Shown: positions 11,366-41,959, counted from the first letter of the stretch. The stretch is DNA of 64,000 nt from an uncultured Nitrospiraceae bacterium (GCA_963811165.1 CAWEQH010000010.1:896001-960000); one strand, 5' to 3'. Made by a program: numbers and translations. Notes: a model not told the origin generated them from the sequence alone.

Positions 11366-11492
11366 CCTATCTCCATTCTCTCCTATGATTACCGGTTTTC
11401 AGCACATTATATGCTGCGTCTCACGAGTCTCGGACATCAATAGACTCTGATTAATACTGTTTTACGAAACACTGCGTCATCGGTATCTGGAA

Positions 11493-12065: not shown

Positions 12066-12275
12066 AGCTTTGTCTCCTTATCCCATTAAAAAATTAAATC
12101 ATATATGCTCTTTTAGAGTATTGGCGACTGTATAACTCTTATGTGTCGGACCCGAGGAAAAAGATCCGCTATATTATAATATGTGAGCCCGCCAGTACCA
12201 CCCGTTTCATAAAGTCCGAGGAGTCCAGGGACTGAAGGGCCCGTTTGCGCCCATAGTCCCCTTCCACGGTTCCGG

Positions 12276-12965: not shown

Positions 12966-13028
12966 CTTTTTATCTTCCTGCCTCCTTAACTATGTAATTT
13001 TATTGTCTTCGGAGGACAAACGAGAAAT

Positions 13029-13044
13029 AGCAAATAGCGTGCTA
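13029..13044 (-). promoter_or_regulatory. sigma54-like element upstream of REC-PilZ copy 1
   Basis: TAGCACGCTATTTGCT. Confidence 0.45.
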
Positions 13045-13304
13045 AGTTTAGAATTTGTGCAATTATACGGTTGGGATATTACCGGACTTGAGCCCGCGTA
13101 TAAACTCAGATTTTGTCGTACCCCGGCTTGACCGAGCAATCGGGGACCCTTGAAATCACTGGGATTCCCGCCTTTCGCAGGAATGGACAAAAGAGGAAGT
13201 ACTCCACGTGACACACATATCCAAATTATGTGATTCGCTATCATTATGACCTTTTGAAAAAATGATTTGTAAGGTCTGCTTAATTCGTTACTTCCTGATC
13301 ATCC

Positions 13305-13348
13305 GGGGTCATTTCACCCTAAAAAGGGTTATTTTAGTCACGGGGTTG
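13305..13348. promoter_or_regulatory. Putative UAS, copy 3
   Basis: GGGTCATTTCACCC-TAAAAA-GGGTTATTTTAGTCAC. Confidence 0.6.
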
Positions 13349-13611
13349 AGAGGCGGATAAATCCCGTCAGAGATTCAGACGAAAAGCTCAGGCTGCCAAG
13401 CCCAAAGGACAGCCTTGTGGTATGCTGCCTCATTAGAGGTTCAAAGGAAACGGCAATGCTGTCAGTGTACGGTTTGGAAAAAGCGATAGAAGAACTGCAT
13501 GAAAAAGCCGGTAGTGTCCAGGACACTACCAAAAAGCAGCCCGGATCGCTCATGGGTCGAAAAGTAGGGTGATGAAGGAATCCATCCGGGACTACTGCTC
13601 GTAAATTGTGA

Positions 13612-16088: not shown

Positions 16089-17495
16089 TCATTCGTGCGT
16101 GTCCTTTTTCTCTCGAAGATGCGTCAGCCCCATCTTTTTGAGGCGGTACCGGAGAGTGTCCCTGCTGATGTCAAGTAGCCCCGCCGTCTTCCTCTGGTTG
16201 CCGTTGGTCAACGCAAAGGCCTCCTTAATTATGGCTTCTTCCATATCCTTGAGGGACGTGCTGTTCCGGTCCTTGTTCCCGCTTATTTCCACCGGTATCG
16301 CTTCACTCTTTCCGGGGAAAAGACCCTGTTGGACATCGCGGTCCGTGATCTCGTCTCCCTTTGACAAAATGACCATCCTCTCGATCAAATTCTTCAGTTC
16401 CCTCACATTGCCGGGCCATTCGTATTCCTGTAAACTCGTCATGGCCTTCGCGGACAAGCCCTTCGGCTTTAACCCGTATTTTTCACCACTCTCATCCAGA
16501 TAGTATTGAAGGAGCAAAGGTATATCGATTTTCCGCTCCCTTAGCGGAGGCATCTCGATCGTTGCGATATTGAGGCGGAAAAAGAGGTCAAGTCTGAATT
16601 TCTTGGCGTGTACAAGGTCCTGAAGATCCCTGTTTGTCGCGGCCAGTATCCTCACGTCGGCATGTATGTAATCAAGCCCTCCGATTCTCCGGAACCTTTT
16701 TTCTTCGATCAGAGTGAGGATTTTTGACTGCATCCCGTAAGGCATGTCGCCGATTTCATCAAGCAGCACCGTGCCGCCCTGAGCCATCTCAAAGAGCCCC
16801 TTCTTTGTTTCTTTCGCATCAGTGAATGCACCCTTTTTATAGCCGAAGAGCTCGCTTTCTATGAGATGGTCCGGTATGTTCGAGCAGCCAATCTCCACAA
16901 ACGGCATATTCCTACGGGAACTCATCTCGTGGATCCTCCTGCAGAGGAGATTCTTCCCCGTACCGCTCTCCCCGAGCACAAGGATCGTTACGTCGGACTT
17001 TGCCGCCAAACTGTCTGCGATCCTGATGACCTCTCTCATCGTGTCGCTCGCAAAGACACCATCGCCTATCCTGTTGTTCTTATCTATTGGTTGTTTTTCT
17101 TTCTTTAGGGTTCGTAGAACGTTAGTGATGCTGGCAAAATCGAGAGGTTTTTCAAGGAAATCATAGGCCCCCATCTTCATGGCCTCGACGGAGCTTTTTA
17201 TGTCGGCATACCCCGTGATCACGATAACCACGGTTTCGGGATTTACCTCTTTAATGGTTTTAAGGAGATCAATCCCGCTCGAATCGGGTAACCTGACATC
17301 CAGTACAACGATTCCCGGGGTCTCTTCTTCCAAGATTTTTAATGCGGAGGCGCCGGAACTTGCCGTCAAGACGGTAAATCCCTCTTTCTCGAAGAGCTTT
17401 TTCAGCGAAAGTCTAATCAGCGCTTCATCATCAACGATCAAACTTTTTTTCTGGATTATGGCGGAACTGGGTTTAGGGAATTTCTTCAGTTTCAC
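16089..17495 (-). CDS. sigma54-dependent response regulator (NtrC/AtoC family), copy 1
   Basis: REC; GESGTGK; ESELFG..GAFTDA; WPGNVREL; Fis-type HTH. Confidence 0.92.
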   Translation of the reverse strand: MKLKKFPKPSSAIIQKKSLIVDDEALIRLSLKKLFEKEGFTVLTASSGASALKILEEETPGIVVLDVRLPDSSGIDLLKTIKEVNPETVVIVITGYADIKSSVEAMKMGAYDFLEKPLDFASITNVLRTLKKEKQPIDKNNRIGDGVFASDTMREVIRIADSLAAKSDVTILVLGESGTGKNLLCRRIHEMSSRRNMPFVEIGCSNIPDHLIESELFGYKKGAFTDAKETKKGLFEMAQGGTVLLDEIGDMPYGMQSKILTLIEEKRFRRIGGLDYIHADVRILAATNRDLQDLVHAKKFRLDLFFRLNIATIEMPPLRERKIDIPLLLQYYLDESGEKYGLKPKGLSAKAMTSLQEYEWPGNVRELKNLIERMVILSKGDEITDRDVQQGLFPGKSEAIPVEISGNKDRNSTSLKDMEEAIIKEAFALTNGNQRKTAGLLDISRDTLRYRLKKMGLTHLREKKDTHE

Positions 17496-17799
17496 ATTAT
17501 CCTTTCCGCGGGTCTCTAATCTATGCCGCCGGACATACCCATAATCCTTCCATCTTCGTTTTCCGGTTTATCAGCGATATATATTCGTGCTCTAATGTTA
17601 CTATCATAATAAGAAATAAATCAATATTTCTAAACTATTTTTTCTAAGCTTCTTTGAAACCAATGGACAATAGATGACCGTACGAGTCTTTGATCGGTAT
17701 CCATAAAGTTCGAGCAGACAATGATGCTGTCTTTTGGAGCCCATGGCCCTAAGTTTTTTCACCTGAATCTAACCCAGGACTGATCCATCTATCACCCGT

Positions 17800-17837
17800 G
17801 TGACCAGAATAACCCTTTTTAGGGTGAAATGACCCCG
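17800..17837. promoter_or_regulatory. Putative UAS, copy 4 (inverted)
   Basis: GTGACCAGAATAACCC-TTTTTA-GGGTGAAATGACCCC. Confidence 0.6.
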
Positions 17838-18096
17838 GATGATCAGGAAGTAACGAATTAAGCAGACCTTACAAATCATTTTTTTAAAAGGTCATAATGA
17901 TAGCGAATCACATAATTTGGATATGTGTGTCACGTGGAGTACTTCCTCTTTTGTCCATTCCTGCGAAAGACGGGAATCCCAGTGATTTCAAGGGTCCTCG
18001 ATTGCTCGGTCAAGCCGGGGTACGACAAAATCTGAGTTTATACGCGGGCTCAAGTCCGGTAATATCCCAACCGTATAATTGCACAAATTCTAAACT

Positions 18097-18112
18097 TAGC
18101 ACGCTATTTGCT
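18097..18112 (+). promoter_or_regulatory. sigma54-like element upstream of REC-PilZ copy 2
   Basis: TAGCACGCTATTTGCT. Confidence 0.45.
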
Positions 18113-18175
18113 ATTTCTCGTTTGTCCTCCGAAGACAATAAAATTACATAGTTAAGGAGGCAGGAAGATAAAAAG

Positions 18176-18934
18176 ATGGCCGCCAACAAAATTTTGATCG
18201 TTGAAGACAATGAGCTCTTGCTTAATATGCTGAGAATACTCCTTACAAAGCGGCGGTATTACGTCGTGGCGGTTGCTTCAGGCAAAGAGGCGATGGGGAA
18301 GCTGTCCCAAGATCGTTTTGATGCGGTGCTCCTTGATATAAACCTGCCTGACATAAGTGGGTGGGAAGTTCTCCCCATGATAAGGTCGACTTCGCCTTCT
18401 ACTGAAGTATTGATGATGACCGCCTCTTCTACCGAAAACAGCAGGTGCAAGGCGTTCCGCCTCGGCGCCTTCGACCTCCTGGAGAAACCGTTTTCCACAG
18501 ACGAGCTTAACGAACTGCTTAACTGCATGCTTAACCCTGACCTCGTTAAGGCCCGGTATGCCGAGGGCCGTCATATGGAAGTGACACTCACCTTTGATGA
18601 CTGCAGATGTCTTAATGAGTGCAGATGTCCTGGCATGTCGATCGGTCTTTCAGAGAGGGGGATGCTCATACTTCCCGACAATAATTATTACAGACACTTG
18701 CAGGATGGAAGCAGAATATGTGTCCGCCTCCGTCTCCCCGGCAACCGCGCGATCGCCATGCAAGGAGAACTCATAGGCCGGAACAACTCTCAGGCTATGG
18801 ACAGGCGCTATATCCAGGTCGGATTGGCAGACCCTCCCCCGTCCTATGTGGAGTTTATTAATTTACCGGCGCTGGGGAAGGGGACTATGGGCGCAAGCGG
18901 GCCCTTCAGTCCCTGGACTCCTCGGACTTTATGA
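18176..18934 (+). CDS. Response regulator (REC plus PilZ-like), copy 2
   Basis: Identical to 12276..12965 for 229 aa, with a 23-aa longer C-terminus. Confidence 0.8.
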   Translation: MAANKILIVEDNELLLNMLRILLTKRRYYVVAVASGKEAMGKLSQDRFDAVLLDINLPDISGWEVLPMIRSTSPSTEVLMMTASSTENSRCKAFRLGAFDLLEKPFSTDELNELLNCMLNPDLVKARYAEGRHMEVTLTFDDCRCLNECRCPGMSIGLSERGMLILPDNNYYRHLQDGSRICVRLRLPGNRAIAMQGELIGRNNSQAMDRRYIQVGLADPPPSYVEFINLPALGKGTMGASGPFSPWTPRTL

Positions 18935-19067
18935 AACGGGTGGGCTCATAGTAACAAAGCGGATGGAGGCTTTAAGATTCGGGTTTATTCCTATAGCGGG
19001 ATGGGCAATAGATCATGCCCGACGGTTACGGCAGCATATTTGCTTTAATTTTTAAGGAGACAAAGCT

Positions 19068-19640
19068 ATGGCGGAAGTGATGGCAAAAGGTCCGAATTTC
19101 GTTTTTGCAAAAAAGTTTATCCTTCAAGAATACAAGGCGGACATATGGGTAAAACTTCTTGCTTCTGTTCCATCCGATGTCGCCACAATCTGGAGGGATA
19201 CACCTCTTGTTACTTCAAGCTATCCGTTCGGGGCTTTCAAATCTATGGTAACGTCACTGTCAAAGGTATCGGGAAGACAGGAAGAGGTTGAGACCGCCCG
19301 CCTCTATGAGTATATCGCAGAAAACAGTCTGAACGTTCTTTACAAGATTTTCTTTCAGCTGGCGAATCCTTCGTTTGTCATAAAAAATTATCCGATGTTA
19401 TGGAGCCGTTTCTTCGACGCAGGGAGGGTCAAAGTCCTTGTGGCCGGGAAAGGCCACGCGATAGTGAAGTTCACACTTCCCGAGATTTTTTTGGACTGGC
19501 TTTCACCGGCATGTCGCGGTTATTCAAAGAAGGCCGTAGAAATGGGCGGAGGCAAAGACCTGACGATTCATCAGGTAAGCAAGTCTTTATTGTCCGACAA
19601 CACATGGGAGATCATCTATGAGCTGAATTGGGTAGAATAA
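19068..19640 (+). CDS. DUF2378/H-NOX-like protein, paralog 4
   Basis: Close paralog of 11493..12065. Confidence 0.65.
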   Translation: MAEVMAKGPNFVFAKKFILQEYKADIWVKLLASVPSDVATIWRDTPLVTSSYPFGAFKSMVTSLSKVSGRQEEVETARLYEYIAENSLNVLYKIFFQLANPSFVIKNYPMLWSRFFDAGRVKVLVAGKGHAIVKFTLPEIFLDWLSPACRGYSKKAVEMGGGKDLTIHQVSKSLLSDNTWEIIYELNWVE

Positions 19641-19739
19641 TTCCAGATACCGATGACGCAGGGTTTCGTAAAAAAGCATTAATTAGAGTCGGAAAGTTGT
19701 GAGAGAGAAGCAGAATGGACATGCGCGACGGGACGATTT

Positions 19740-22312: not shown

Positions 22313-22432
22313 CAGATATTGATTAATCAAATATTATAGTGTTAGGATATTTCGTCGCTGATATGCCGAAAACGAAGGGAAAAAATGGCTATGTCCGGCG
22401 GAATAAACATGAGACCTGGGGGAAAGGATAAT

Positions 22433-23818
22433 GTGAACCTGAAGAGGTCCATGCAGTCCCGCTACGCCACAATCCACAAAAAAAGTTTGATCGTCGACGA
22501 TGAGGCTATGATCAGACTGTTGCTGAAAAAGGTCTTCGAGAAAGAAGGGTTTTCCGTCGTTACGGCAAGTTCCGGCGCCTCCGCATTAAAAATCTTGGAA
22601 GAAGAGACCCCGGGAATAGTTGTACTGGATGTCAGGTTACCCGATTCCAACGGAATCGACCTCCTAAGGACCATTAAAGAAGTAAATCCCGAAACCATTG
22701 TCATCATGATCACAGGGTATGCCGACATAAAAAGCTCTGTCGAAGCTATGAAGATGGGGGCCTATGATTTTCTTGAAAAACCTCTGGATCTTGAGAATAT
22801 CGGCAACATGCTCTCGGCCCTCAAAAAAGAAAAACCACAGAAAGATAAGAACAGCAGTATGGGTGATTTTGTTTACGCGGGCGACACGATGAAAGAGGTC
22901 GTCAGGATTGTGGACAGTCTGGCGACAAAGTCCGACGTGACAGTCCTTGTGCTTGGGGAAAGCGGTACGGGGAAGAATCTCCTCTGCAGGAGGATCCACG
23001 AGATGAGTTCCCGTAGGAATATGCCGTTTGTAGAGATCGGCTGTTCGAACATCCCGGACCATCTTATGGAAAGCGAACTCTTCGGCTATAAGAAGGGGGC
23101 ATTCACTGATGCAAAGGAAACAAAAAAAGGGCTTTTTGAACTAGCCCTCGGCGGCACGGTGCTGCTTGATGAAATCGGCGACATGCCTTATCAGATGCAG
23201 TCGAAGATCCTCACTCTGATCGAAGAAAAAAGGTTCCGGAGAATAGGAGGACTCGATTACATGCATGCCGACGTGAGGATACTGGCCGCGACAAACAGGG
23301 ATCTTCAGGACCTTGTGCATGCCAAGAAATTCAGACTGGACCTTTTTTACCGGCTCAATGTCGCAACGATCGAGATACCCCCGCTAAGGGAGCGGGAAAA
23401 AGATATCCCTTTTCTCCTTCAATATTACCTTGATAAGAGCTACGAAAAATATGGGCTAAAGCCGAAGGGCTTGTCCGCGAAGGCCATGACGAGTTTACAG
23501 GAATACGAATGGCCCGGCAATGTGAGGGAGCTGAAGAATTTGATCGAGCGGGTGGTCATCTTATCAAAGGGAGACGAGATCACGGTCAACGATGTCCAAC
23601 CTTGTCTTTTTCCTGGAAAAAGGGGAACGGCACAACCCCAGATGGGGACGACCCTCAAGGCCATGGAAGAAGACTTGATCAAGGCGGCCTTTGAGCTGAC
23701 ACATGGCAACCAGAGGAAAACGGCGAACCTGCTCGACATCAGCAGGGACACCCTCCGGTACCGCCTCAAAAAAATGGGGCTGACTCAGCCGCGGGAAAAA
23801 AAAGCCCCGCACGAATGA
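22433..23818 (+). CDS. sigma54-dependent response regulator, copy 2
   Basis: Paralog of 16089..17495; GTG start and leader homologous to 17495-17640. Confidence 0.92.
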   Translation: MNLKRSMQSRYATIHKKSLIVDDEAMIRLLLKKVFEKEGFSVVTASSGASALKILEEETPGIVVLDVRLPDSNGIDLLRTIKEVNPETIVIMITGYADIKSSVEAMKMGAYDFLEKPLDLENIGNMLSALKKEKPQKDKNSSMGDFVYAGDTMKEVVRIVDSLATKSDVTVLVLGESGTGKNLLCRRIHEMSSRRNMPFVEIGCSNIPDHLMESELFGYKKGAFTDAKETKKGLFELALGGTVLLDEIGDMPYQMQSKILTLIEEKRFRRIGGLDYMHADVRILAATNRDLQDLVHAKKFRLDLFYRLNVATIEIPPLREREKDIPFLLQYYLDKSYEKYGLKPKGLSAKAMTSLQEYEWPGNVRELKNLIERVVILSKGDEITVNDVQPCLFPGKRGTAQPQMGTTLKAMEEDLIKAAFELTHGNQRKTANLLDISRDTLRYRLKKMGLTQPREKKAPHE

Positions 23819-28305: not shown

Positions 28306-29439
28306 CTACTTCTCGGTTTCGACCCGTTTCAGTTCGGCCGTGACCCTCCCGATAGAGACCTTGGTCTCAACCTTAAGGGGCAGTCGATTTTCGTCATTTG
28401 AAAGCCAGATCCTTATATCACCCTTATTTTGGAAGAGACCATCCGACTTAAGAATGGGTTTCACAATAATGGCCTCTATCTCTCCTCTTTCAGCGAATTT
28501 GACCCTTTCCCTGCCGAGCACGTTGACCTCGGCGTTCAATACCTTGTTACTGTCGAAGATATCGATAAAGACCGTCTTATCAGGGTCAAGACCCTTCGTC
28601 CTAAGATAGTAAAAACCAGAGATCACGTCCCAAAAAGTACCGCCTGCGTCGAGATGCTCCTCCTTGATCCCTTTCAGATAATCGTAGTAAGTGATCCTCT
28701 TGCCGTCGGCGTCAAATATTGTTTCCTTGTCGCTTCTGTATCTGCCCTCGTGTTGCCTTATCCTGAAGCTAAAGGGCCTTCCTTCTACGACCCTGCTTTC
28801 AGCGAAATCTTCTACCTTGTAGATTGTGGATATGACAGGCGAGGAATGGACCCGGGAGGTGATCCTGATGATACCGCCCTCATTGACCGCTTCGAGGACC
28901 GCTTTCCCCACATATATGCCGAGCCAGAATATGTCGTAAGAAAACTTCTCCCTCTTAAAATTAATTATCTTGGGAGCCTGGCTGTGTTTAGGGGATTTCA
29001 CAGTCCATTCCGGCACAATATATTTAGCGACTTTAGCGGCATCTTCTATTCCCCTCCCGTCCGTGGGGTCTTCAAGCGCGGTCGCCTTTTTTTCATCACT
29101 AGGCGGTGTAGTTTCACGGGCCCTTTTCATGTCCGCATCTGCCGCGGCCCCGTCTTGGGCTGTCGTACCTTCTTCATTTTTTCCTTCGGGTCTTACGCCC
29201 TTTTTAGCGGATATGCGGGGAGGAGAATACACCCCTGAGTACTTTTCAGCCGCGCGACTCGCATAAGGTTTCGCCCGCGACTCCTCCAAAAGATCTGCAG
29301 AGAGACTTTTTTCGGAAGAAAGTCCGGCAATACCCATCACGCCGATTCCGGGGACAGAGACGATTGCTGCGGCATGAAGTATCCCCGAAATGACAAGCGA
29401 GACCAGCAAAGGGATAGAAATATTTCTGAAAATTCTCAC
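28306..29439 (-). CDS. DUF3108 domain protein
   Basis: EKFSYDIFWLGIYVG..WLSNDENRLPLK pattern; N-terminal anchor and linker. Confidence 0.75.
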   Translation of the reverse strand: MRIFRNISIPLLVSLVISGILHAAAIVSVPGIGVMGIAGLSSEKSLSADLLEESRAKPYASRAAEKYSGVYSPPRISAKKGVRPEGKNEEGTTAQDGAAADADMKRARETTPPSDEKKATALEDPTDGRGIEDAAKVAKYIVPEWTVKSPKHSQAPKIINFKREKFSYDIFWLGIYVGKAVLEAVNEGGIIRITSRVHSSPVISTIYKVEDFAESRVVEGRPFSFRIRQHEGRYRSDKETIFDADGKRITYYDYLKGIKEEHLDAGGTFWDVISGFYYLRTKGLDPDKTVFIDIFDSNKVLNAEVNVLGRERVKFAERGEIEAIIVKPILKSDGLFQNKGDIRIWLSNDENRLPLKVETKVSIGRVTAELKRVETEK

Positions 29440-29751: not shown

Positions 29752-30837
29752 TCAGAGTCTCAGGACATCGCAGGCATTCGTAAAGATCGACTCATGGATT
29801 CCGAAGTCTTTCAGTACCCTGTAATGGATGTCAAGAAGGTTTCCCTGCCCGCTGATATGTTCCCGCAGTTCATTCGTATTGAGAGGTTCTTTCACAACGT
29901 CACTGTCCACTGCAGGCATCGGGAAATCGCTACCGTAAAGAAAGCGTTTAGGACTTATCCTTCCCTCTTCTATTTCCCTCTTGATTCTCTGGAGATATTC
30001 TATTTGGGAGGGTGCGCAACAGGCAGATATATCGGCATACAGGTCCCACTTTTTTTCTTCCGCCGTCCTAAGCATCTCAAGCAGACATTGCACACCTCCC
30101 CCGTTCCCGCCGGGTGACGCATAATGAGACACAATCACTTTGACGCCTATGTCGAGAGCGCTCTTCAGCTTTCTCGGATCGCTGTAGGTAATTGTCCTGA
30201 TGTCGGTCATGCGCGCCGAAGACATGCTGCCCGTGTGAAAGAGAAGCGGAATGCCTTCTTTCGCCAGACATACATAAAATGGTATGCACCTGTCATCCTC
30301 AGGGTTTATCTGCTGGTCGGAGGGAGACCACATGAAAAGCGCTGCACCCTCATCTATGCAGCGTTTCGAAACGGCCAACATAGCCGCCGCCTCGCGGTAG
30401 GGGTGCACAGAGGCTCCGAAAAGCACTTTTTTGTACGTCCTGGAAAGATCGATTATGTAATCGTTGGGGACCATAAGTTGCGTCTCCTGCGAAACGAATT
30501 TACCGTTTTTGTAAACACCGTCCATCGCGAGAAAAACCGCGTAATCGGTATTCTCGGAGCTATTGACAACTCCAAGAAGGTTTTCGATTATCTCCCCGTC
30601 GCTTAAGGCAGAGGTCTTAAGAGTCATGAGAATGGAGGAAAAAACGGGGCCGGAGACAAACTCCTGCGATGCGGTGACCCCCATTAAGGTATCACCTCTG
30701 CTCACGGCGTGCACATGGATATCGATGACCTTCCCCTCAAGCATACAATTCGTGCTCCTGAACCTCTCACTCCGCCCGAACACTTTATCGTTCATTCTTC
30801 CATTTCCTTCAAGGCCATCATTCACCACGAAAGCCAT
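29752..30837 (-). CDS. Amidohydrolase family protein (TIM-barrel metal hydrolase)
   Basis: IDIHVH; ASVHP; LFHTG; YGSDFP. Confidence 0.85.
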   Translation of the reverse strand: MAFVVNDGLEGNGRMNDKVFGRSERFRSTNCMLEGKVIDIHVHAVSRGDTLMGVTASQEFVSGPVFSSILMTLKTSALSDGEIIENLLGVVNSSENTDYAVFLAMDGVYKNGKFVSQETQLMVPNDYIIDLSRTYKKVLFGASVHPYREAAAMLAVSKRCIDEGAALFMWSPSDQQINPEDDRCIPFYVCLAKEGIPLLFHTGSMSSARMTDIRTITYSDPRKLKSALDIGVKVIVSHYASPGGNGGGVQCLLEMLRTAEEKKWDLYADISACCAPSQIEYLQRIKREIEEGRISPKRFLYGSDFPMPAVDSDVVKEPLNTNELREHISGQGNLLDIHYRVLKDFGIHESIFTNACDVLRL

Positions 30838-30848
30838 ACCATTTCTTA

Positions 30849-31115
30849 TTACTTATCGTCTATATCCTGATTGGCGGCTATGGAAACCGCCTGCATCCTG
30901 TTGATAACACCAAGCTTTCGCATGATATTATTAACGTGGTAATTTACTGTCCTTTCGCTTATTCGCAGGATCACTGATATGGCCCATGACGTCTTGCCTC
31001 GCCGGAGCCACATGAGGACTTCCCGCTCCCTTGGAGAAAGGGACTGTAAAGGATCCATGTCGGTTACGGTCTTCTTCCCCCTCATATCCCCGTTTGCCAT
31101 TTCCCCTATTGTCAT
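30849..31115 (-). CDS. Stand-alone LuxR-type HTH regulator
   Basis: LSPREREVL.W...GKTSW.IS.IL.ISERTVNYH..NIMRKL. Confidence 0.85.
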   Translation of the reverse strand: MTIGEMANGDMRGKKTVTDMDPLQSLSPREREVLMWLRRGKTSWAISVILRISERTVNYHVNNIMRKLGVINRMQAVSIAANQDIDDK

Positions 31116-31152
31116 CTCATCAAAATTTTATGGAAAGAGATACATTAATTCT

Positions 31153-31168
31153 TGCAAAGAGAAGGCCA
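31153..31168 (-). promoter_or_regulatory. sigma54 promoter (TGGCCTTCTCTTTGCA) of the luxR-amidohydrolase pair
   Basis: GG/GC at -24/-12 spacing, ~38 nt before the ATG. Confidence 0.65.
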
Positions 31169-31309
31169 GAAATGAGAAAGGCATAACACGCTGTTTTATA
31201 TGAAGTTATCTCCCCATGTCATGTCATGGGGCAGCTAAAGACCCTTATAAAAGTTTGTAGGATTATATGGAAAGTTATATAGTTTGGGAGAGAGAGTATC
31301 TGAGTGGGG

Positions 31310-32653
31310 CTACTTAATGCCGTATTCTTTTATCTTTGCAAAAAGGGTCGCATAGCTCAGGTCGAGCAAATCCGCGGCCTTGGTCTTGTTCCCTTCCGTC
31401 TTCGCAAGCGCCTGGATGATAATCCTTTTTTCAAGGTCCCTGACAGCCTCTTTAAGCGGCATGACGGAACACGCACTCTTCTCTCTTCCTTGATGACTCA
31501 TCAACACCTCTACGCATGTCTGGTCGATCACATCGCCTTCGGCAAGAAGGGTCGCCCTCCTTATGACGTTCTTGAGTTCCCTCAAATTGCCGGGCCACGA
31601 ATATTTCATGAGGACAGCGAGTGATCCCCCTTCGATCTCCCTGATCTGCTTGTTCAGTTCTATCCCGGCCTCGAAGGCGAATTTGCGCGCAAAAAAAGGA
31701 ATGTCCTCGACCCTCTCTCTAAGCGGCGGCAGCGTGATGAAGAATTCTCCCAAGCGGTAGAAAAGGTCCTCTCTGAACTCCTTCTTCTCTACACTTTCTT
31801 TCAAATCCTTGTTCGTCGCCGCGATAATACGGATATCCACGTCCACCGGGCTTGTGCTTCCCAGTGGGTAAATCCTTTTTTTCTCTATGACGCTCAGGAG
31901 TTTTCCCTGGACATGAGGCGACATGTTTTCTAACTCGTCTATGAATATCGTGCCGCCGTGGGCGGTCTCGAAATAACCGGCCTTGTCGCGGTCGGCGCCT
32001 GTAAAGGCCCCTTTCTTATACCCGAACAGCTCACTTTCAACAAGAAGGTCAGGGATCAGTCCGATGTCGACGCTCACGAAGGGCTTCCCGGACCTCGCGC
32101 TCAGGTTCTGTATGGCACCTGCCACCACCGACTTTCCCGTGCCTGTCTCCCCCTGGATTATTACCGAAAAATTCGTCTGCGCCACCTGCTTGATCCTGTC
32201 GACGACCGTCTTCATTGCGCCGCTTCGGCCGATCTGGTGTTCAAGCGACGACTCAAGCGCTGTGGTGGTCCTTTTGACCTCAATCTCAAGCCGCCGCTTT
32301 TCTAGGGCCTTCCTGAGGGTAAAAACGAGCCTGTCGAATTCGGGAGGCTTAATCAGAAAATCATAAACACCGTGCTTTATCGCATCAACCGCGGTAGGGA
32401 TGTCGCCGTATGCGGTAAGAATAATAACGGGCACGTCCGGGCCGATTTTCCTGATCTCCTGCATCGCATCGATACCGTTCATGTAAGGCATATTCAGATC
32501 GAGCAGAACCGCATCCGGGGGGTCCTTTCTGAAGAGTTTGATGGCGCTGATGCCATCCCCGGCCTCGGTCGTAGCGAAGCCCTCTTCTTTCAACACGTCC
32601 CTGACTACACCTCTTAAGTCCCTGTCGTCATCGACAACGAGTATTCTTTCCAT
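31310..32653 (-). CDS. sigma54-dependent response regulator
   Basis: REC; GETGTGK; GAFTGA; WPGNLREL; HTH. Confidence 0.93.
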   Translation of the reverse strand: MERILVVDDDRDLRGVVRDVLKEEGFATTEAGDGISAIKLFRKDPPDAVLLDLNMPYMNGIDAMQEIRKIGPDVPVIILTAYGDIPTAVDAIKHGVYDFLIKPPEFDRLVFTLRKALEKRRLEIEVKRTTTALESSLEHQIGRSGAMKTVVDRIKQVAQTNFSVIIQGETGTGKSVVAGAIQNLSARSGKPFVSVDIGLIPDLLVESELFGYKKGAFTGADRDKAGYFETAHGGTIFIDELENMSPHVQGKLLSVIEKKRIYPLGSTSPVDVDIRIIAATNKDLKESVEKKEFREDLFYRLGEFFITLPPLRERVEDIPFFARKFAFEAGIELNKQIREIEGGSLAVLMKYSWPGNLRELKNVIRRATLLAEGDVIDQTCVEVLMSHQGREKSACSVMPLKEAVRDLEKRIIIQALAKTEGNKTKAADLLDLSYATLFAKIKEYGIK

Positions 32654-34240
32654 TTATCGGTCCTCTTCGCCTGCGTCCTCTGCCGCCCCGTCTTCCACAT
32701 CTCCCTCTGATGCTCCAACTAGGGGCAGGTATATTGCAAACTCCGTTCCCTCCCCCTTCTTCGTATCAACTTCTATCCGTCCTTTATGCCGTTCTATTAT
32801 ACCGTATACAATCGAAAGTCCGAGGCCTGTTCCCTTGCCCACGTCCTTTGTAGTGAAATAGGGCTCAAATATCCTCTCTTTGACCTGTTCATCCATGCCG
32901 GGCCCCGTATCACTTACTGAAATTACCGCGTATGTCCCGGGATTGAGAGACTTGCTTCCCTCCCCCACACTGGCGGACCTTGTAGTTACCGTAATCACCC
33001 CTCCGTCGGGCATCGCATCGCGCGCGTTCGAACAAAGGTTCATAAGGACCTGCTCCATCTGAAGGCGGTCCGTCAGTGCTGTCAGACGTTCCTCCGAAAG
33101 AGAGATAATCAACCCGATCTCTTCTCCCGCGATATTCAGAAGCATCGGCCGCAGGTCTCTGATGATAGTATTTATGTTCATCGGGTGTAAATTGATTGTA
33201 TGCGTTTTGCTGAAGGCAAGCAGTCCGCGTATCAGGTTCTGGGCCTTTGTTATCGAATTATGCACCTGCTCGGTATACTGCCTCAAGTTGACCTGCTCTT
33301 GAAGCTTCTTCTCCATAAGGTAGATGGACCCCCTGAGGGTTGCGAGGATATTGTTGAAGTCATGTGCAATTCCCCGTGCTAGGGTCCCTATCGCCTCCAT
33401 CTTCTGGGCATGTCTGAGCCGCTCTTCGAGGGCCTCTTTTTCCTCTTCCCTCTTTTTAAGGTCCTCGTACATAATGTTGAAATCGACGGCGAGTCTTCCT
33501 ATCTCGTCCATCGACTCCACAGGGACTTTCTCGATCGTCTCCCCCCTGCCAAGAGACCTCACGGATAGGGCAAGTCTCGTGAGAGGCTGGGTGACCCTGT
33601 GGATGGCGATATAGATGGCGATGCTGCCCGCAAGGAGAAAAACCAGAGCAATGAGGGCGTTCCTTAATATAATGACTTTCATCTCCCGCCTAAGTATGTC
33701 CTTATCGAGTATGACCTCTACGTAACCGATCACACTTCGTTCGCTTGACGGAGCGGAGACATCAAAATAAAGCGCCTCCTCTGCATTTCTATAGGTCTCA
33801 AGATAGACAGGGGCGAGAAAAACGATGGTATCTTCCCTTTCCACAGGCTCGGGTATCCTGTCGCCGGGGTCTGGCGCAAATGCTTCAGGGACAAGCGAGG
33901 TCGTCTTCGGGACCTCTTGCTCCGTGGTCTTCCTGGTCTCAACGAGCAGCGCCTTCTTCTCCATGTTATATATCGCTACGGCGAGGACGTTCTTCTGGCC
34001 CATTATCCCCTGCACCGCATCTTTAAGCATGTCCTTGTTCTCAGCGAAGACCCACGTCCTGGTATTGTAGGCGAGCAGGTCGGCAAGCATCTTTCCCTCG
34101 TTGTAAAGGTCTTTTCGGACTGCCCTGTTTTCATGATAGATGAAAAAGGCTGTGAAGCCCGCAAAAACCAGGAAGATCGAGACCGCAAACGACCTGAATA
34201 CTTTGAAACTGAAACTATTTTTTGTCCTTTCAGTCAACAT
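32654..34240 (-). CDS. HAMP-domain sensor histidine kinase
   Basis: 2 TM; HAMP DEIGRL; GIAHDFNN; GTGLGL. Confidence 0.92.
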   Translation of the reverse strand: MLTERTKNSFSFKVFRSFAVSIFLVFAGFTAFFIYHENRAVRKDLYNEGKMLADLLAYNTRTWVFAENKDMLKDAVQGIMGQKNVLAVAIYNMEKKALLVETRKTTEQEVPKTTSLVPEAFAPDPGDRIPEPVEREDTIVFLAPVYLETYRNAEEALYFDVSAPSSERSVIGYVEVILDKDILRREMKVIILRNALIALVFLLAGSIAIYIAIHRVTQPLTRLALSVRSLGRGETIEKVPVESMDEIGRLAVDFNIMYEDLKKREEEKEALEERLRHAQKMEAIGTLARGIAHDFNNILATLRGSIYLMEKKLQEQVNLRQYTEQVHNSITKAQNLIRGLLAFSKTHTINLHPMNINTIIRDLRPMLLNIAGEEIGLIISLSEERLTALTDRLQMEQVLMNLCSNARDAMPDGGVITVTTRSASVGEGSKSLNPGTYAVISVSDTGPGMDEQVKERIFEPYFTTKDVGKGTGLGLSIVYGIIERHKGRIEVDTKKGEGTEFAIYLPLVGASEGDVEDGAAEDAGEEDR

Positions 34241-35171
34241 GTTCCGCCCTGTGTAGGATGTCGTCCCTCACCTTTATTCCGAATTTTCTGATAATCTTCC
34301 CGTTGACCGCAAGGACCGCACTTCTGGCGTCTGTCCTTACAGCCTTGGGGTTCTTCTCTGCGACCAGCTTCCGTGCTATCTCTCCTGCCTGAACGCCTAT
34401 GTCGAAAGGCGAGCTATAGAGACCGGCGGCGGACCCCATCTCGACATATTTCTTCGAAAATGTAAATATAGGGACCTTATTCCTGAATGAGAAAAGGAGA
34501 AGGTATTTCACTGTCTCGGGGTTAATCACGGTCGTATCGGGAAGCATCCAAAAGACGTCTATTTTGTCCTTCATCGAATCCACAAGAGCAGGGATATCGG
34601 CCTGTCTTGAAGCTTTTCTAAGGACAAGTTCTACGCCCCTGCCCTGTGCTGATTGCGAGGCTTCCTTTATATATGCCTCCGAGTTTCTGGGGTCGTATAT
34701 CACACCTATTCTCCTTAAGCCGTGGAAGACGTCGAGCATGGAGCCTATATACTTGTCGGGCTGGATATACATACTGACGCCGGAGAGGGGCTTCGCTCCG
34801 GCACTCAGGGTCTGGGAATTGGGGACCATGGCATATATGACCGGGATGTCCCTGACCGACCTTGCGAGGTTAAGTGCGTCCATCCCGATGGCAAAGACCG
34901 CCACTATGTCGGAATCATGGACTTTACTAAGGATGTCTGAGGGCTCCGCCTCGGCCATGACCACTTCACTTACGTCATGATCGCAGGAAGTCCTAAACCC
35001 CTCAAGCGCATCGTTATAAGGCTTTATTTCTGCACTTTTTATCGCGACGATCTCGCCCGCCTCTGACGAGGCTGCGAAACCAATGAGGAAGAGCAACGTA
35101 ATTATTACAAAAAAAGAAGATCTCTTGTTCAATCCGTCCCCACGGAGAATTTTATCAGTTGAATATAACAA
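34230..35171 (-). CDS. ABC-transporter-type substrate-binding protein
   Basis: Signal peptide; RRIGVIYDP; FWMLPD; IG.QAG; start uncertain. Confidence 0.8.
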   Translation of the reverse strand: MLYSTDKILRGDGLNKRSSFFVIITLLFLIGFAASSEAGEIVAIKSAEIKPYNDALEGFRTSCDHDVSEVVMAEAEPSDILSKVHDSDIVAVFAIGMDALNLARSVRDIPVIYAMVPNSQTLSAGAKPLSGVSMYIQPDKYIGSMLDVFHGLRRIGVIYDPRNSEAYIKEASQSAQGRGVELVLRKASRQADIPALVDSMKDKIDVFWMLPDTTVINPETVKYLLLFSFRNKVPIFTFSKKYVEMGSAAGLYSSPFDIGVQAGEIARKLVAEKNPKAVRTDARSAVLAVNGKIIRKFGIKVRDDILHRAEHVD

Positions 35172-35219
35172 AAGCGGGTGAATAACACAATAATATTATA
35201 GATTATTCGACAATTACGC

Positions 35220-35247
35220 GTAGGGGCGTGTTGCAACGTGCCCCTGC
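35220..35247. repeat. GTAG-type REP palindrome
   Basis: GTAGGGGCGTGTTGCAACGTGCCCCTGC; similar element at 53056-53083. Confidence 0.6.
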
Positions 35248-35406
35248 ATTTACTCGCCCCCCTGCCTCTATAGAATTACCCTGTGTTTTGTGTCTTACCA
35301 CTACCCCTCCGCACCTCCCCTTACAAAAGGGAAGATTTCAGGAGGCCATTTCCCTGGCTTCATCCCCTCCTTAGCAAGGAGGGGTGAGGTGAGCTAGTTT
35401 CTTCTC

Positions 35407-36723
35407 TTACTTCCCGACCAGTCCGTACTTTATGTCTTGCTTCACAACGGCCTCGAGCGTGGCGTCAAGGTATGGTTTCTTGCAGTCAACTCCTTCCATA
35501 TTTCCATCACGGACGAGTTTCATGTGACGGCATCCTCCGAAACAGAGGGGGAGATACACGCAGCTTAGACACTCTTCATTCTTCCAGCAGTCTTTGCCGT
35601 GAGGCTGCATTTTATACTTGATGCCGGTCCTGAGATCGCCGACCTTGAATTCCTCGCGGCCGACTAGCGAGGGGCACTTGTAGATACTTCCATCGTAATT
35701 CACAAGATAGTTATCTTTCATGTCTAGTGAACATACACCAGGAACCGTACTTCGCGGGCCCTTGTAGCCCCGCTTAAGCACCTCCCCGCTCAGATAGACA
35801 CTCGCCTCAAAGAGCCAAGGCTCATTAAAGCTGCAGCATCCTTCATTGAAATCAGCCGGTCCGTATCCGTAACTCTCTGCCGTCACCGGATTGAACCTCA
35901 CGGACTCAACTTTGTCTGGAGTAAGGCCATTGGCGAGCATAAAATCGAGAAGATAGGGAAATTCACGGTAATTGTCCTGCATATAATTTCCGCCGACCTG
36001 GATGCCGATCATTTCACAAACTTCTTTCAGGTTTCCAAAAATCCTTTCAAAGCTGCCCTTGCCGGAGGTAAAAGGCCTGAAAAGGTCGTGTAGTTCCTTA
36101 GTACCGTCGAGCGTAACAACGGCTCCTCTCACCCCATGAGGTGTAAGCCTGGACACTACATGCGGGGTGAGAAGGGTCCCGTTCGTAACAATATAGGCCG
36201 CATATCCTATACCCTTTTCTTCGGAAAACCCTTTTATCCTTTCTGAAACGCAGGCCACAAGGTCCAAGCTCAGAAGGGGCTCCCCACCATAAAAGGTTAT
36301 CGCTATCTTCTCATCGCCGGTCCTTCCGTCAAGCCCTTCCGCCCATCTTTCAACAAAGCCGATAAAAAGGTCGGCGGTCTCCTGTGTCATATAGAATTTC
36401 CCCTTGCGCTGGCCTTCGAAACAATACTTGCATGCAAGGTTGCAATCGAGGTTCATCACGATCTTCGCGGCGAAGGTGCGGGAAATTGCATTGAGGTCAT
36501 CGATAAAACCGAGCATCTCTTCATGCTCTGAATCAGCACCTTCGCTAAGGAAACCGAGGGCCGACAGGGTCTTCAGCTCCTCCCCTGAGATGCGGCCGGA
36601 TTCGATCTCAGCGAACATGCCTGAAGGAATGCTGATTATCGAACCCTTTTTCGCAGAAAAAAGGATGAGCGCTCCAGGCTCATCCCAGTTGTTAAAGATC
36701 CTCAGATACCTTGTTAAAATCAT
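35407..36723 (-). CDS. Radical SAM/SPASM peptide maturase (geopeptide-maturase-like)
   Basis: CNLACKYC; FYGGEPLL; TNGTLL; SPASM YKCP..CLSCVYLPLCFGGC; start set at ATG 36723. Confidence 0.88.
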   Translation of the reverse strand: MILTRYLRIFNNWDEPGALILFSAKKGSIISIPSGMFAEIESGRISGEELKTLSALGFLSEGADSEHEEMLGFIDDLNAISRTFAAKIVMNLDCNLACKYCFEGQRKGKFYMTQETADLFIGFVERWAEGLDGRTGDEKIAITFYGGEPLLSLDLVACVSERIKGFSEEKGIGYAAYIVTNGTLLTPHVVSRLTPHGVRGAVVTLDGTKELHDLFRPFTSGKGSFERIFGNLKEVCEMIGIQVGGNYMQDNYREFPYLLDFMLANGLTPDKVESVRFNPVTAESYGYGPADFNEGCCSFNEPWLFEASVYLSGEVLKRGYKGPRSTVPGVCSLDMKDNYLVNYDGSIYKCPSLVGREEFKVGDLRTGIKYKMQPHGKDCWKNEECLSCVYLPLCFGGCRHMKLVRDGNMEGVDCKKPYLDATLEAVVKQDIKYGLVGK

Positions 36724-36736
36724 ATATCTTCGAAAT

Positions 36737-36767
36737 AACCGGGGAGAAGCAGTTTCGCTCCCCGGTT
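36737..36767 (-). terminator. Stem-loop between precursor and maturase
   Basis: AACCGGGGAG..CTCCCCGGTT inverted repeat. Confidence 0.65.
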
Positions 36768-36775
36768 CCGGGGCA

Positions 36776-36877
36776 TTACCTCGCCAGCTTCCCTGTCGGC
36801 GCTGAGGTACAGCACGCCATTGCAGCCAGGTCTTTCTTTTCCACTCCCTTTTCCAGGATAACAATCCGCTTTACCAT
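36776..36877 (-). CDS. Geopeptide-like RiPP precursor, 33 aa (MVKRIVILEKGVEKKDLAAMACCTSAPTGKLAR)
   Basis: Manually translated; GGAGG RBS; LEKG leader and CC core; directly upstream of the rSAM/SPASM gene. Confidence 0.85.
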   Translation of the reverse strand: MVKRIVILEKGVEKKDLAAMACCTSAPTGKLAR

Positions 36878-36921
36878 TCTTCCACCTCCAATTAAGAAAT
36901 GCGCATCCCAATGGACACGGG

Positions 36922-38814
36922 TCACAATTTTACCCTCAAGCCTCCCTCTATCCATCTTTCGGCATTCTTGTAGTTTTCTATCCAGTACTGAGCGCCGTTG
37001 AACAGATTGTGCATTGTCAAGAAGACCTCTGCGCTATATGAGTTGCCCCTATAGACAGTCTTTATCGCATTGAAATCGAAGATAAAGCCGTTGTATTTGG
37101 CGTTGAAATCTGCAGATGCATTCCACCATATATAATGACCCTTCAGGAGTGCCCGGAAAGATTTTTTGTCGTCGTACTGGAGACCTATATCATAAGTATA
37201 CGTGGGATTGCCGCTTATCTCTTCTCCTGTTTCACGGTCCTCGGTGTGGATGAAGGAGGCAGCGGCCGAAAGCGTGAAATTATATATAGGGACAGTCTTG
37301 ATCGCCGCCTCGAGTCCTTGCCTTCTCACCCTGTCCCTATTAATGTAAGTCCATGTCCCTTCATCGATTGAAATGTCCTCCCTCGTTATCGCGTCGCGGA
37401 TATCGTGCCTGAATCCCGAGACCTTCAGCCAGAGGTATTTCAACGCGCCGGTCTCGACCCCGAGCTGGTAAGACCAAACCTTTTCAAGTTTGAGATCAGG
37501 GTTATTCACAAAGAATGGGCCACTGGCATAGAGAAATGTCACCGCCGGAATATTGAACCCTCTTGCAACAACACCTCTTAGTATTGTCTTGTCCGCGATC
37601 TCATAGGTAGCGCCCAGGCTAGGGCTAAGGGTATTCGACTTTAGGCTCGTTCCGTCAACATCGACACTGTCAACCCGCAGACCGGGGATGACCGTAAATC
37701 TCCCCAGCGAGATGGTATCGTTCAGATAAGCTGCTGCTATATGCTCGTCGAATTTCGTATCCCCAAAATAAGATCCCTTCACGCGATATAAGTCATAGTC
37801 TCCGCCAAAGACAAGGGAGTGGATTCCCTGTCTGAACTCACCCTTTACGCTCGCCCCATATTTATTGTCCTGAAGGTTGCTCGGTGTGACTGTTCCCTCA
37901 ACAAGGTCCGTCGTGGTACCGGATGACAACTTCTGCTCGGCCCTTGCAGAAACGTCAACCGAAATAGTATCGCTCAGCCTGCTCTTGACGCCAAGAGAGG
38001 AAAGAAGGACCTCATCCTGCGTATCGAAACTGAGGCCGAAGGCCTCGAAGTCACCGCCCTGGTTTCGCGCCTTATTATAAAAAAGGCTGTAAGTGACAAC
38101 TGTGTCTTTCGAAAAATCATAAGAAAGTTTTCCGTAAAGACTGTTTCGGGAACTTATATCATGGGTCGTCAGACCGTCGGTCTGGAGCCTGCCGCTATAG
38201 AGATAGTAGCCGATCTGATCTTTTTTTCCGCTCAACTCGGCCCTGAAGTCGCCGGTGTTCCTTTCGCCGTACGACCCGGAGATGACCCCGCGAGTTCCAT
38301 CACCCGAGGGAGTCTTTGTAATAACATTGACTATGCCCCCCAACGATGAACCCCATACCGAAGATGCCGGCCCCTTGATCACCTCGACCTTATCGATCAT
38401 CTGCACCGGTATAAGGTCAGCGTCAGCAAAGCCCCCGGAAAGGTCACTGATACGGACGCCGTCGATGAGTATGACTACATGATCGACCCTGGAACCCTGT
38501 ATCTGTGCGTTTGCTATACTGCCCGGACTTCCGCCGCCAAAGCTCACCTGCACCCCGTTCACCGTATTCAAAACATCTCCGAGCGTATGGGCATTCATAA
38601 GTTCGATGTCTTCTTTAGTCACGACCTCCACATTCTCCGCAATGCGCGTGATCGACTTGAGGCTCCTTGTTGCGGATATGACCTGGATCTCGTCTTCCTT
38701 GAAATACATAAGAAGGAAACTCTTCTCTTCCTCAGACATTGCAAACGCAGGGGTAGAGAAAGGTGATAGGATGAAGATCAAAAAAAGAACGAATGCGGTC
38801 TTACTGAAAGACAT
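36922..38814 (-). CDS. TonB-dependent receptor
   Basis: Plug motifs VISATR, ILIDG, IDKVEVIKGPASSVWGS; beta-barrel C-terminus. Confidence 0.92.
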   Translation of the reverse strand: MSFSKTAFVLFLIFILSPFSTPAFAMSEEEKSFLLMYFKEDEIQVISATRSLKSITRIAENVEVVTKEDIELMNAHTLGDVLNTVNGVQVSFGGGSPGSIANAQIQGSRVDHVVILIDGVRISDLSGGFADADLIPVQMIDKVEVIKGPASSVWGSSLGGIVNVITKTPSGDGTRGVISGSYGERNTGDFRAELSGKKDQIGYYLYSGRLQTDGLTTHDISSRNSLYGKLSYDFSKDTVVTYSLFYNKARNQGGDFEAFGLSFDTQDEVLLSSLGVKSRLSDTISVDVSARAEQKLSSGTTTDLVEGTVTPSNLQDNKYGASVKGEFRQGIHSLVFGGDYDLYRVKGSYFGDTKFDEHIAAAYLNDTISLGRFTVIPGLRVDSVDVDGTSLKSNTLSPSLGATYEIADKTILRGVVARGFNIPAVTFLYASGPFFVNNPDLKLEKVWSYQLGVETGALKYLWLKVSGFRHDIRDAITREDISIDEGTWTYINRDRVRRQGLEAAIKTVPIYNFTLSAAASFIHTEDRETGEEISGNPTYTYDIGLQYDDKKSFRALLKGHYIWWNASADFNAKYNGFIFDFNAIKTVYRGNSYSAEVFLTMHNLFNGAQYWIENYKNAERWIEGGLRVKL

Positions 38815-39134
38815 ATTTCGAATCCTCCGAAAGTTTTTTATTTGTCTATTTTTACGCCGTTTTTTCAGCCCTTCTAAATATTAATTTTTCGAAGTATATT
38901 CTATTCAAACCGCTGCTGTCTAGAGAAAAATAAGCAATTGCGCATCCCTGCAGTTATGGGTAAGACCCACCCCTCCCAAGTGGGAGACAAGACAGAACTC
39001 GGGACACACTTGCGATGCCTCCACTTAGCATGCACTGAAAAAGATCAATTCTACGATGGAGGGAGGTCACTCATTGCTCACGATATCAGGAACGCTCCGC
39101 CGGCGACGATATTTAAGCGGCTTCAATCCAGAAT

Positions 39135-39170
39135 AAAAAAAGGGTCTGCAGACAAACTCTGCAGACCCCT
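39135..39170 (-). terminator. Intrinsic terminator of the atp operon
   Basis: GGGTCTGCAGA..TCTGCAGACCC followed by a T-run on the minus strand. Confidence 0.85.
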
Positions 39171-41088: not shown

Positions 41089-41959
41089 TTATCCCTTTAG
41101 GGCCTCGACGCCGCCGACAATATCCATGAGTTCCTTGGTAATGGTGGCCTGTCTCGCCTTGTTATACTGGAGCGAAAGAGCATCGATCATATCGTTGGCA
41201 GCCCTTGTCGCATTTTCCATCGCGGCCATCCTGGCGGCTTCTTCCGACGCCTGCGATTCAAGGAGCGCCCTGAAGACCTGGATCTCGACATTCTTCGGAA
41301 CAAGCCTGCTGAATATCTCCTGCTTAGAAGGCTCATAGATAAAGTTGTACACAGGAAGAGACTCTTCGCTCGCCTTGATCGGCTCAAGAGGAAGCAGTCT
41401 CTGGACCACAACCTGCTGTGCGATAGCGGACTTGAACTCGTTATATATAAGCACGACCTCGTCGATCGTTTCGTTCGTATAATTTTCGATAATATCCGCC
41501 GCTATCTCCTGGGCGTTCCCATACGATATCTTCCCGGAGATGCCGGTCCATGCTTTTGCCATCTCGATTCCGCGCCTTTTGTAATAGTCGCGGGCCTTTC
41601 TTCCGACAATGCTGATACCGACCTCATAACCTTCTTTCTTCAGCCCCTCGGTATGCCGTGTGCGCAGCCTTAAGTATATTGGTGTTAAAGGCGCCGCAAA
41701 GCCCTCTGTCGCTCGTCAGCACGAGCACCTGGATGTTCTTCCTCGGCCTCACTGCGAGAAGTGGGTGAATCTCCCCCTCCGCGCTGCTTGCGAGGCTGGA
41801 CAGTATGCCATTCATCCTGTCGGCATACGGCCTCATCTCAAACATCCTTTGCTGGGCCTTCCTGAATTTCGCGGCGGCGACCATCTTCATCGCCTTTGTG
41901 ATTTTGCTCGTGCTCTGTACCGCTTTTATTCTTCTTTTTATGTCTCTCAGTGTCGCCAT
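41089..41959 (-). CDS. atpG: ATP synthase gamma subunit (frameshift near 41660, probably a sequencing error)
   Basis: KITKAMKMVAAAK, SDRGLCG, ARMAAM..AT, RQATITKE in two frames. Confidence 0.92.

Follow-up and report, generated by a model that had tools for sequence, protein, structure and literature searches.

The geopeptide system is known from the NCBIfam database, where a precursor family (TIGR04229) and a radical S-adenosylmethionine (SAM) maturase family (TIGR04280) were defined by comparative genomics. We analyzed a locus of this type in a 64,000-nucleotide (nt) stretch of DNA from an uncultured Nitrospiraceae bacterium (GCA_963811165.1, CAWEQH010000010.1:896001-960000), hereafter called the window, to whose positions the coordinates refer. 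All genes of the block under study, 29752-38814, are co-oriented on the minus strand, in the order TonB-dependent receptor, peptide precursor, maturase, spacer, binding protein, sensor kinase, sigma-54-dependent activator, LuxR-type protein and amidohydrolase. A first-pass annotation, made from the sequence of the window, had listed this set of co-oriented genes, and every one of them is present. The block shares with the NCBIfam system a maturase scoring over the family cut-off, a short Cys-Cys precursor directly upstream of it and the same neighbours. It differs in a precursor that scores under the cut-off, in the presence of a sigma-54 activator with a LuxR-type/amidohydrolase output, and in its host, which is a Nitrospirota relative and not Geobacter. 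This circuit is real, conserved and unstudied. Full-text literature searches, to whose coverage subscription journals do not belong, found no published work on a geopeptide make-import-sense system, which agrees with the earlier remark that the product and role of ribosomally synthesized and post-translationally modified peptides of the geopeptide type are uncharacterised.

The block combines known kinds of system, i.e. modified-peptide biosynthesis, TonB-dependent uptake and binding-protein-dependent kinases. Like the window enzyme, thioether-forming (ranthipeptide) maturases of the CteB/SCIFF type carry a SPASM domain and an N-terminal extension ahead of the radical SAM core, and their core peptide contains Cys; in contrast to them, the window maturase scores well under their family cut-offs, and the core here consists of two adjacent cysteines with a tail of 7-13 residues. 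LuxP-LuxQ and TorT-TorS are binding-protein-dependent sensor kinases. As in these pairs, the gene of a transporter-less secreted binding protein adjoins that of a kinase with a periplasmic domain, but the complex is here a predicted one, the families are PF04392 and an sCache_4-like domain, and the genes of a TonB-dependent receptor and of a candidate ligand lie in the same block. In the SusC/SusD uptake systems of Bacteroidota, hybrid two-component sensors read the imported glycan in the periplasm. The likeness lies in a TonB-dependent transporter that hands a porin-excluded molecule to a periplasmic two-component sensor, whereas in the window the ligand would be a self-made modified peptide, a separate binding protein is encoded, and SusD and degradative enzymes are absent. 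Methanobactin operons encode a modified-peptide copper carrier, a TonB-dependent transporter and a periplasmic binding protein. The window likewise has a modified-peptide precursor beside such a transporter and a periplasmic binding protein, but its maturase is of the radical SAM/SPASM type, neither MbnB/MbnC-type genes nor an ECF sigma/anti-sigma pair occur in the block, and the binding protein is coupled to a kinase. On the reading developed below, to which we give an even chance, the cell makes the modified peptide itself, takes it back up through a receptor specific to it and senses it with the binding protein-kinase pair, with a sigma-54-driven LuxR/amidohydrolase output.

The linkage of receptor, precursor, maturase, binding protein and kinase is far beyond chance; the arrangement recurs in the same genome and across the phylum. 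A second geopeptide maturase (618.7 bits; locus L009) is encoded 65 kb away in the same genome. In that copy, the genes for a receptor, a Cys-Cys precursor of 33 residues and the maturase, together with a split gene of the major facilitator superfamily (MFS), face a divergently oriented PF04392 protein and hybrid kinase. The two copies thus differ in arrangement (co-oriented in the window, divergent in L009), and each has its own receptor, binding protein and kinase. The L009 MFS gene is broken into two pieces (7576-8160 and 7087-7554), as is atpG of the window (see below).

In a sample of 401 genomes of the phylum, TIGR04280 scored over its cut-off in 44. The 52 over-cut-off loci, i.e. the two local copies and 50 others, were mapped by phmmer with the proteins of the local copies as queries. 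A receptor was found within 1.5 kb in 46 loci, a binding protein in 44, a kinase in 44 and all three in 36. Five of the six receptor-less loci stop at a contig edge. Among the 33 loci flanked by 5 kb or more of sequence on either side, the receptor was present in 32, the binding protein in 28, the kinase in 30 and all three in 27. Of the six incomplete loci in this full-flank set, two miss the score thresholds only: the kinase of L051 lies in two weak pieces and the binding protein of L076 reaches 73 bits. The first-pass annotation had proposed cluster conservation as a check and had considered that the precursor/maturase pair might usually be found without the sensing genes; the counts show that the pair is usually accompanied by them. 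In a second lineage, entered through a record titled 'Pseudomonadota bacterium' and covered with 20 genomes, three of the five over-cut-off loci have the form of the divergent cassette. The input side stays the same, and what varies among loci is the output: eight have a sigma-54 activator, at least 14 have NarL-type regulators and at least 15 have hybrid kinases.

The precursor gene (36776-36877, minus strand; P0004) is preceded by a Shine-Dalgarno sequence and lies directly upstream of the maturase gene (36723-35407) on the same strand. It is this frame of 33 codons, and not an open reading frame (ORF) of 59 or 63 amino acids (aa) from the mechanical ORF list, that encodes the true precursor, composed of a short Lys-rich leader and a Cys-Cys core. 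Its match to TIGR04229 (14.5 bits, E 0.024) is under the cut-off of 30 bits, yet the leader type and the Cys-Cys motif are common to related loci, so the peptide is a divergent relative of the family and not a member at the level of the model. Upstream Cys-Cys frames were found in 46 of the 52 maturase loci. Both cysteines are invariant in these 46 peptides, which have the motif Cys-Cys-x-Gly/Ala/Ser in common; the second residue past Cys-Cys is Gly in 31, and at the third position 27 have Ala and 11 have Gly. An aromatic residue occurs in the tails of 24 peptides. Thirty-eight loci have a short, Lys-rich leader, and the remaining eight have long Lys/Ala-rich repeats. Long leaders of this kind (L088, L049, L052, L053, L056, L062, L068) reach 88 residues and recall histone H1-like tails; one of them, in L088 (10331-10597, minus strand), belongs to a same-genus orthologue of the window system.

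The maturase (35407-36723, minus strand) matches TIGR04280, the geopeptide radical SAM maturase family, with 538.7 bits (cut-off 400; E 1e-161) over model positions 1-427 of 428. A radical SAM domain (PF04055, 40 bits) and a SPASM domain (TIGR04085, 49.9 bits against a cut-off of 27) were also identified, and the CxxxCxxC motif is readable in the translation. The most likely translation start is the ATG at 36723, which yields a protein of 438 aa, rather than position 36864, because the family match opens only at residue 48 of the long ORF. The closest relative of solved structure is CteB (PDB 5WGG; 78 bits, E 4e-21), and as this enzyme forms thioethers, a thioether-type cross-link in the Cys-Cys core is a reasonable prediction.

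The receptor gene (36922-38814, minus strand) encodes a protein of 630 aa in which Pfam recognizes only a Plug domain (residues 57-160, 76 bits) and a barrel (131 bits), and its N-terminal segment resembles a TonB box. Surface signalling of the Fec type (FecA-FecR-FecI) was rejected, because the receptor has no signalling extension; nor is there a sigma or anti-sigma gene in the block. The whole genome, which is 95% complete, contains two Plug domains, both in geopeptide loci. The idea that TonB-dependent receptors serve geopeptides only, which holds in this genome (two of two), fails across the phylum, where Plug occurs in 340 of 401 genomes.

Expression of the receptor-precursor-maturase operon can be assigned to a sigma-70-like promoter (38893-38922, minus strand; 10 of 12 hexamer matches), whose -35 and -10 hexamers are conserved across five aligned loci. 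The upstream boundary of the block is marked by an intrinsic terminator (39140-39170, minus strand; 13-bp stem followed by a T-run) after atpC, the gene for the epsilon subunit of the F1 ATP synthase. A candidate attenuator hairpin in the precursor-maturase gap was unsupported (-22.4 kcal/mol, z -1.37, equalled by 19 of 200 shuffles). A sigma-54-like site with three mismatches at 36895-36910 was discarded; it lacks the GC of the -12 element and overlaps the ribosome-binding site.

Between this producer unit and the sensor unit lies a structured spacer of 235 nt (35172-35406, minus strand), whose fold energy of -83 kcal/mol (z -3.6) was reached by none of 200 shuffled sequences. It forms three strong G+C-rich hairpins, none of them followed by a T-run, which may act in processing of the transcript or in termination, or may represent a repeat element. 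The sensor unit opens with a secreted PF04392 binding protein (34230-35171, minus strand; 89.7 bits) with a readable signal peptide and a mature start near residue 39. Its gene overlaps by 11 nt that of a sensor histidine kinase (32654-34240, minus strand), composed of a transmembrane segment, a periplasmic sCache_4 domain (approximately residues 36-190), a second transmembrane segment, and HAMP, HisKA and HATPase domains.

No permease or ATPase gene of an ATP-binding cassette (ABC) transporter occurs inside the block, as had been noted in the first-pass annotation. In the 52 loci, an ABC-like ORF (Walker A plus ABC signature) was found within 9 kb on either side in only three cases, each at least 5.7 kb from the maturase, and the branched-chain-type permeases (BPD_transp_2) of the genome are located elsewhere. 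All four PF04392 genes of this genome adjoin signal transducers: two the geopeptide kinases, one a chemoreceptor and one a kinase pair. Secreted, lacking an ABC transporter of its own and encoded next to a kinase that has a periplasmic domain, the window protein shows the configuration of binding-protein-dependent two-component sensors. The third PF04392 protein (L125, G000:C10:747437-753630) is flanked on one side by a multihaem cytochrome and its MtrB/PioB-like porin and on the other by the chemoreceptor (sCache_3_2-HAMP-MCPsignal), and is another transporter-less pairing of PF04392 with a transducer.

A complex of the mature binding protein (residues 39-313, 42-row alignment) with the kinase sensor domain (residues 36-190, 35-row alignment) was modelled. 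The predicted complex has an ipSAE of 0.78 (runs 0.75, 0.78 and 0.81), against 0.02 for the best of three controls; the runs have at least 93% of their contacts in common, and pLDDT of the partner is at least 74. The score mark was attained by 116 of 157 solved complexes and by 2 of 215 mismatched pairs, figures that apply to our case only approximately because our own alignments were fed to the prediction. No solved sequence relative of the sensor domain was found at E ≤ 1, so the pass is unlikely to be a recall of a known complex.

Both faces of the predicted interface are conserved. On the binding protein, mean conservation is 0.66 at the interface and 0.54 over the rest (matched by 37 of 5000 random sets), and on the sensor domain the values are 0.56 and 0.41 (50 of 5000). 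The kinase would contribute Phe65, Glu67, Asn68, Glu155, Leu157, Tyr158 and Phe159, and the binding protein Pro51, Tyr52, Gly96, Met115, Val116, Pro211, Phe238, Ser239 and Lys241. Kinase residues Glu155, Leu157, Tyr158 and Phe159 are kept in 26-30 of 35 rows, and Tyr52, Gly96, Met115, Phe238 and Lys241 of the binding protein in 40-42 of 42. The interface of the latter draws residues from both halves of the chain and is probably the side that carries the ligand cleft. The model, which the first-pass annotation had suggested as a check, supports binding of the two proteins, short of showing it. The earlier proposal that the binding protein feeds the kinase and not a transporter is supported by the gene overlap, the absence of ABC genes, the position of all four PF04392 genes beside transducers and the predicted complex.

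Sigma-54-dependent activators of the NtrC family consist of a receiver domain (REC), an AAA+ domain with a GAFTGA loop and a DNA-binding domain. The response regulator encoded next to the kinase (31310-32653, minus strand) has this composition (REC, AAA+ with GAFTGA, HTH_8), the genome contains rpoN, and a -24/-12 promoter (31153-31168, minus strand; two mismatches, GG and GC intact) is located 38 nt ahead of the LuxR-type gene. The latter (30849-31115, minus strand) encodes a small GerE/LuxR helix-turn-helix protein of 88 aa (PF00196, 80 bits) without a receiver domain. It is followed by a PF04909-type amidohydrolase gene (29752-30837, minus strand; 36 bits against a cut-off of 26.4), for whose product no sequence relative of solved structure was found at E ≤ 0.01. 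Approximately 45 nt upstream of the -24 element, two 7-nt arms separated by 6 nt form an inverted repeat (31209-31228, minus strand), a candidate activator-binding site.

This organization recurs. In seven of the eight sigma-54-type loci, the exception being L090, a -24/-12 site (at most two mismatches, GG and GC intact) lies on the same strand within approximately 150 nt behind the activator gene. The site is followed by a small GerE/LuxR gene in the window, L082, L083 and L088, and by a gene for a receiver-only protein in L067 and L094. An amidohydrolase is a recurrent output gene, being encoded behind the site in the window, L083, L088 and L094 (52% identity in L094). The activator most likely drives the LuxR/amidohydrolase unit.

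The distribution of the genes speaks for the peptide as the ligand. The receptor clade was found in 54 of the 401 genomes and the maturase (at E ≤ 1e-80) in 48, which is a near coincidence, and in five genomes of the same family that lack a maturase, the receptors are all distant (no more than 105 bits). Four of 20 further loci of the receptor clade (L095, L096, L098 and L107) contain receptor, binding protein and kinase genes but no maturase, while in two others (L099 and L102) these genes stand beside a maturase in pieces, with the precursor still present in L099. In an unrooted tree of 56 rows, the receptors of maturase-less loci are interspersed among producer-linked ones; the receiver-only label requires at least four changes and the lone-receptor label at least five. 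As the tree is unrooted, gain and loss are not separable in it.

Peptide tails vary strongly between species, and their distances were compared with those of the proteins in 24 loci. The Mantel correlation with the tail was highest for the receptor (r 0.44) and the maturase (0.40). The partial correlation of receptor and tail, given the maturase, was 0.215 (p 0.023), a significance to be read with the reservation that Mantel tests on related sequences overstate it. A likely division of labour, which fits both these values and the weak correlation of the tail with the binding protein (see below), is one in which the receptor would read the variable tail and the near-invariant binding protein, with its almost unvarying docking face, would read the invariant, presumably cross-linked, Cys-Cys-x-Gly-Ala part. 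That the peptide is the ligand of the binding protein we infer from the linkage of their genes.

The preferred reading can be set out as a sequence of steps. The 33-residue Cys-Cys precursor is predicted to be cross-linked by the radical SAM/SPASM enzyme; the leader would then be removed and the product exported. It would probably re-enter the periplasm through its dedicated TonB-dependent receptor and act, again probably, via the orphan binding protein, which is predicted to dock on the sensor domain of the kinase. In the presumed direction of the response, the sigma-54 activator would next turn on the promoter ahead of the LuxR-type and amidohydrolase genes. An elaboration of this scheme, which we put forward tentatively, is a private peptide channel in anaerobic diderms: the receptor would co-evolve with the tail, the binding protein would sit on the kinase via the Leu-Tyr-Phe loop, and receiver-only genomes would be eavesdroppers.

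A number of observations weigh against the scheme of a re-imported self-made peptide. The block contains no exporter or leader peptidase gene, and the MFS gene of L009 has counterparts that bring the total to just six of the 52 loci. The genome encodes one TonB_C protein, which stands alone (L124, G000:C1:196259-197107), and its sole ExbB/ExbD-type pair is TolQ/TolR of the Tol-Pal cluster (L123, G000:C8:143400-152100), so the two TonB-dependent receptors are left without a dedicated ExbBD. Positive feedback on peptide production is a hallmark of quorum sensing. No sigma-54 site (at most two mismatches, GG and GC intact) was found before the receptor or the precursor, and since the promoter of the producer operon is sigma-70-like, an autoinducing feedback loop is not seen. 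Linkage also has its gaps: L055, L084 and L086 lack a binding protein, L087 has a maturase with an MFS gene only, two of the five loci of the second lineage (L118, L119) consist of a maturase alone, and the clade includes six solitary receptors. Assembly errors may account for the broken maturases seen in metagenome-assembled genomes; the genome studied here itself has a frameshifted atpG (see below). Docking may be independent of any ligand, because it is the conserved aromatic residues of the kinase loop that touch a conserved face of the binding protein. The peptide tail, finally, correlates weakly with the binding protein (Mantel r 0.17) and with the sensor (0.14) and catalytic (0.11) parts of the kinase, and given the maturase the partial correlations are negative (-0.23 for the binding protein, -0.16 for the sensor domain).

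This lack of co-variation between the peptide tail and the binding protein and sensor domain speaks for a rival reading in which the sensing arm would read another cue, a small periplasmic molecule such as an aromatic amino acid, and the receptor-peptide-maturase operon would be a separate neighbour or merely co-regulated, its product perhaps being antimicrobial or otherwise extracellular. The three PF04392 proteins with solved structures bind free L-Trp, L-Tyr or L-Phe and no peptides (PMC10443332, Table 1). The structured spacer and the separate promoters part the producer unit from the sensor unit, and the other PF04392 proteins of the genome pair with transducers without peptide genes. On the other hand, 27 of the 33 full-flank loci combine the maturase with the binding protein and kinase; the combination occurs in co-oriented and divergent forms and in two lineages, and unrelated units are unlikely to stay together in this way. 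Maturase-less loci, moreover, retain the receptor along with these two sensing genes. We regard a separate cue as unlikely. Retention of the receptor would also suit a peptide metallophore or shared nutrient carrier, which binds metal outside the cell and is recovered by the receptor, its arrival being reported by the binding protein and kinase, in loose analogy to methanobactin operons: receiver-only loci resemble piracy of foreign siderophores, the receptor is directly beside the precursor in 46 of the 52 loci, the two geopeptide-locus receptors are the only ones of the genome, and the two cysteines are invariant. A carrier is nonetheless improbable in our judgement, for there is no inner-membrane importer nearby, the tails have no further Cys (46 of 46) and a His in only 3 of 46, and their strong variation between species is unusual for a metal ligand.

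The direction of transport can be questioned as well. TonB-dependent export across the outer membrane has reportedly been described for one myxobacterial protease, and the receptor might by analogy be the exit of the matured peptide, whose periplasmic pool would be monitored by the sensing genes' products, the binding protein and kinase. No other outer-membrane export route is encoded, and the co-variation of receptor and tail fits transport in either direction. The Plug domain and TonB-box-like N-terminal segment are, however, ordinary for importers, and loci with a receptor, binding protein and kinase but without peptide genes would make little sense if the receptor were an exit, so that we consider this very unlikely.

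Peptide signalling is a textbook subject for Gram-positive bacteria. In diderm bacteria it is rare, as porins do not let peptides larger than approximately 600 Da pass the outer membrane. Should re-import and sensing of the self-made peptide be confirmed, the cassette of peptide, energised outer-membrane gate and periplasmic sensor would show how diderm anaerobes solve the porin limit, and it would be the first TonB-gated modified-peptide pheromone system. The carriers found here are relatives of Nitrospirota sulfate reducers, and the family name implies relatives of Geobacter too. A role would also be given to a modified-peptide family that has been named in a database and left unstudied, and that is present in the 44 sampled genomes mentioned above. 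The predicted docking motif offers concrete residues, and the sigma-54 promoter a concrete reporter site, for experiments.

Downstream of the amidohydrolase gene lies a gene encoding a DUF3108 protein (28306-29439, minus strand; PF11306, 120 bits). Its membership in the block is uncertain, and its synteny is limited to the closest relatives, L083 and L088. Upstream of the block, the gene for the gamma subunit of the F1 ATP synthase (atpG, 41089-41959, minus strand) is split into two ORFs in different frames, one (41624-41959) corresponding to Pfam positions 1-100 of 285 and the other (41089-41562) to positions 133-285. As atpG is an essential gene, the frameshift points to an assembly or long-read error. 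The window also contains three pairs of large inverted repeats: 12198-13385 and 17756-18943 (1188 nt, 98%), 11443-12080 and 19053-19690 (638 nt, 93%), and 16299-17507 and 22421-23629 (1209 nt, 87%). Three direct copies of 300 nt begin at 7720, 8614 and 11482. These repeats may represent duplicated genes or mobile DNA.

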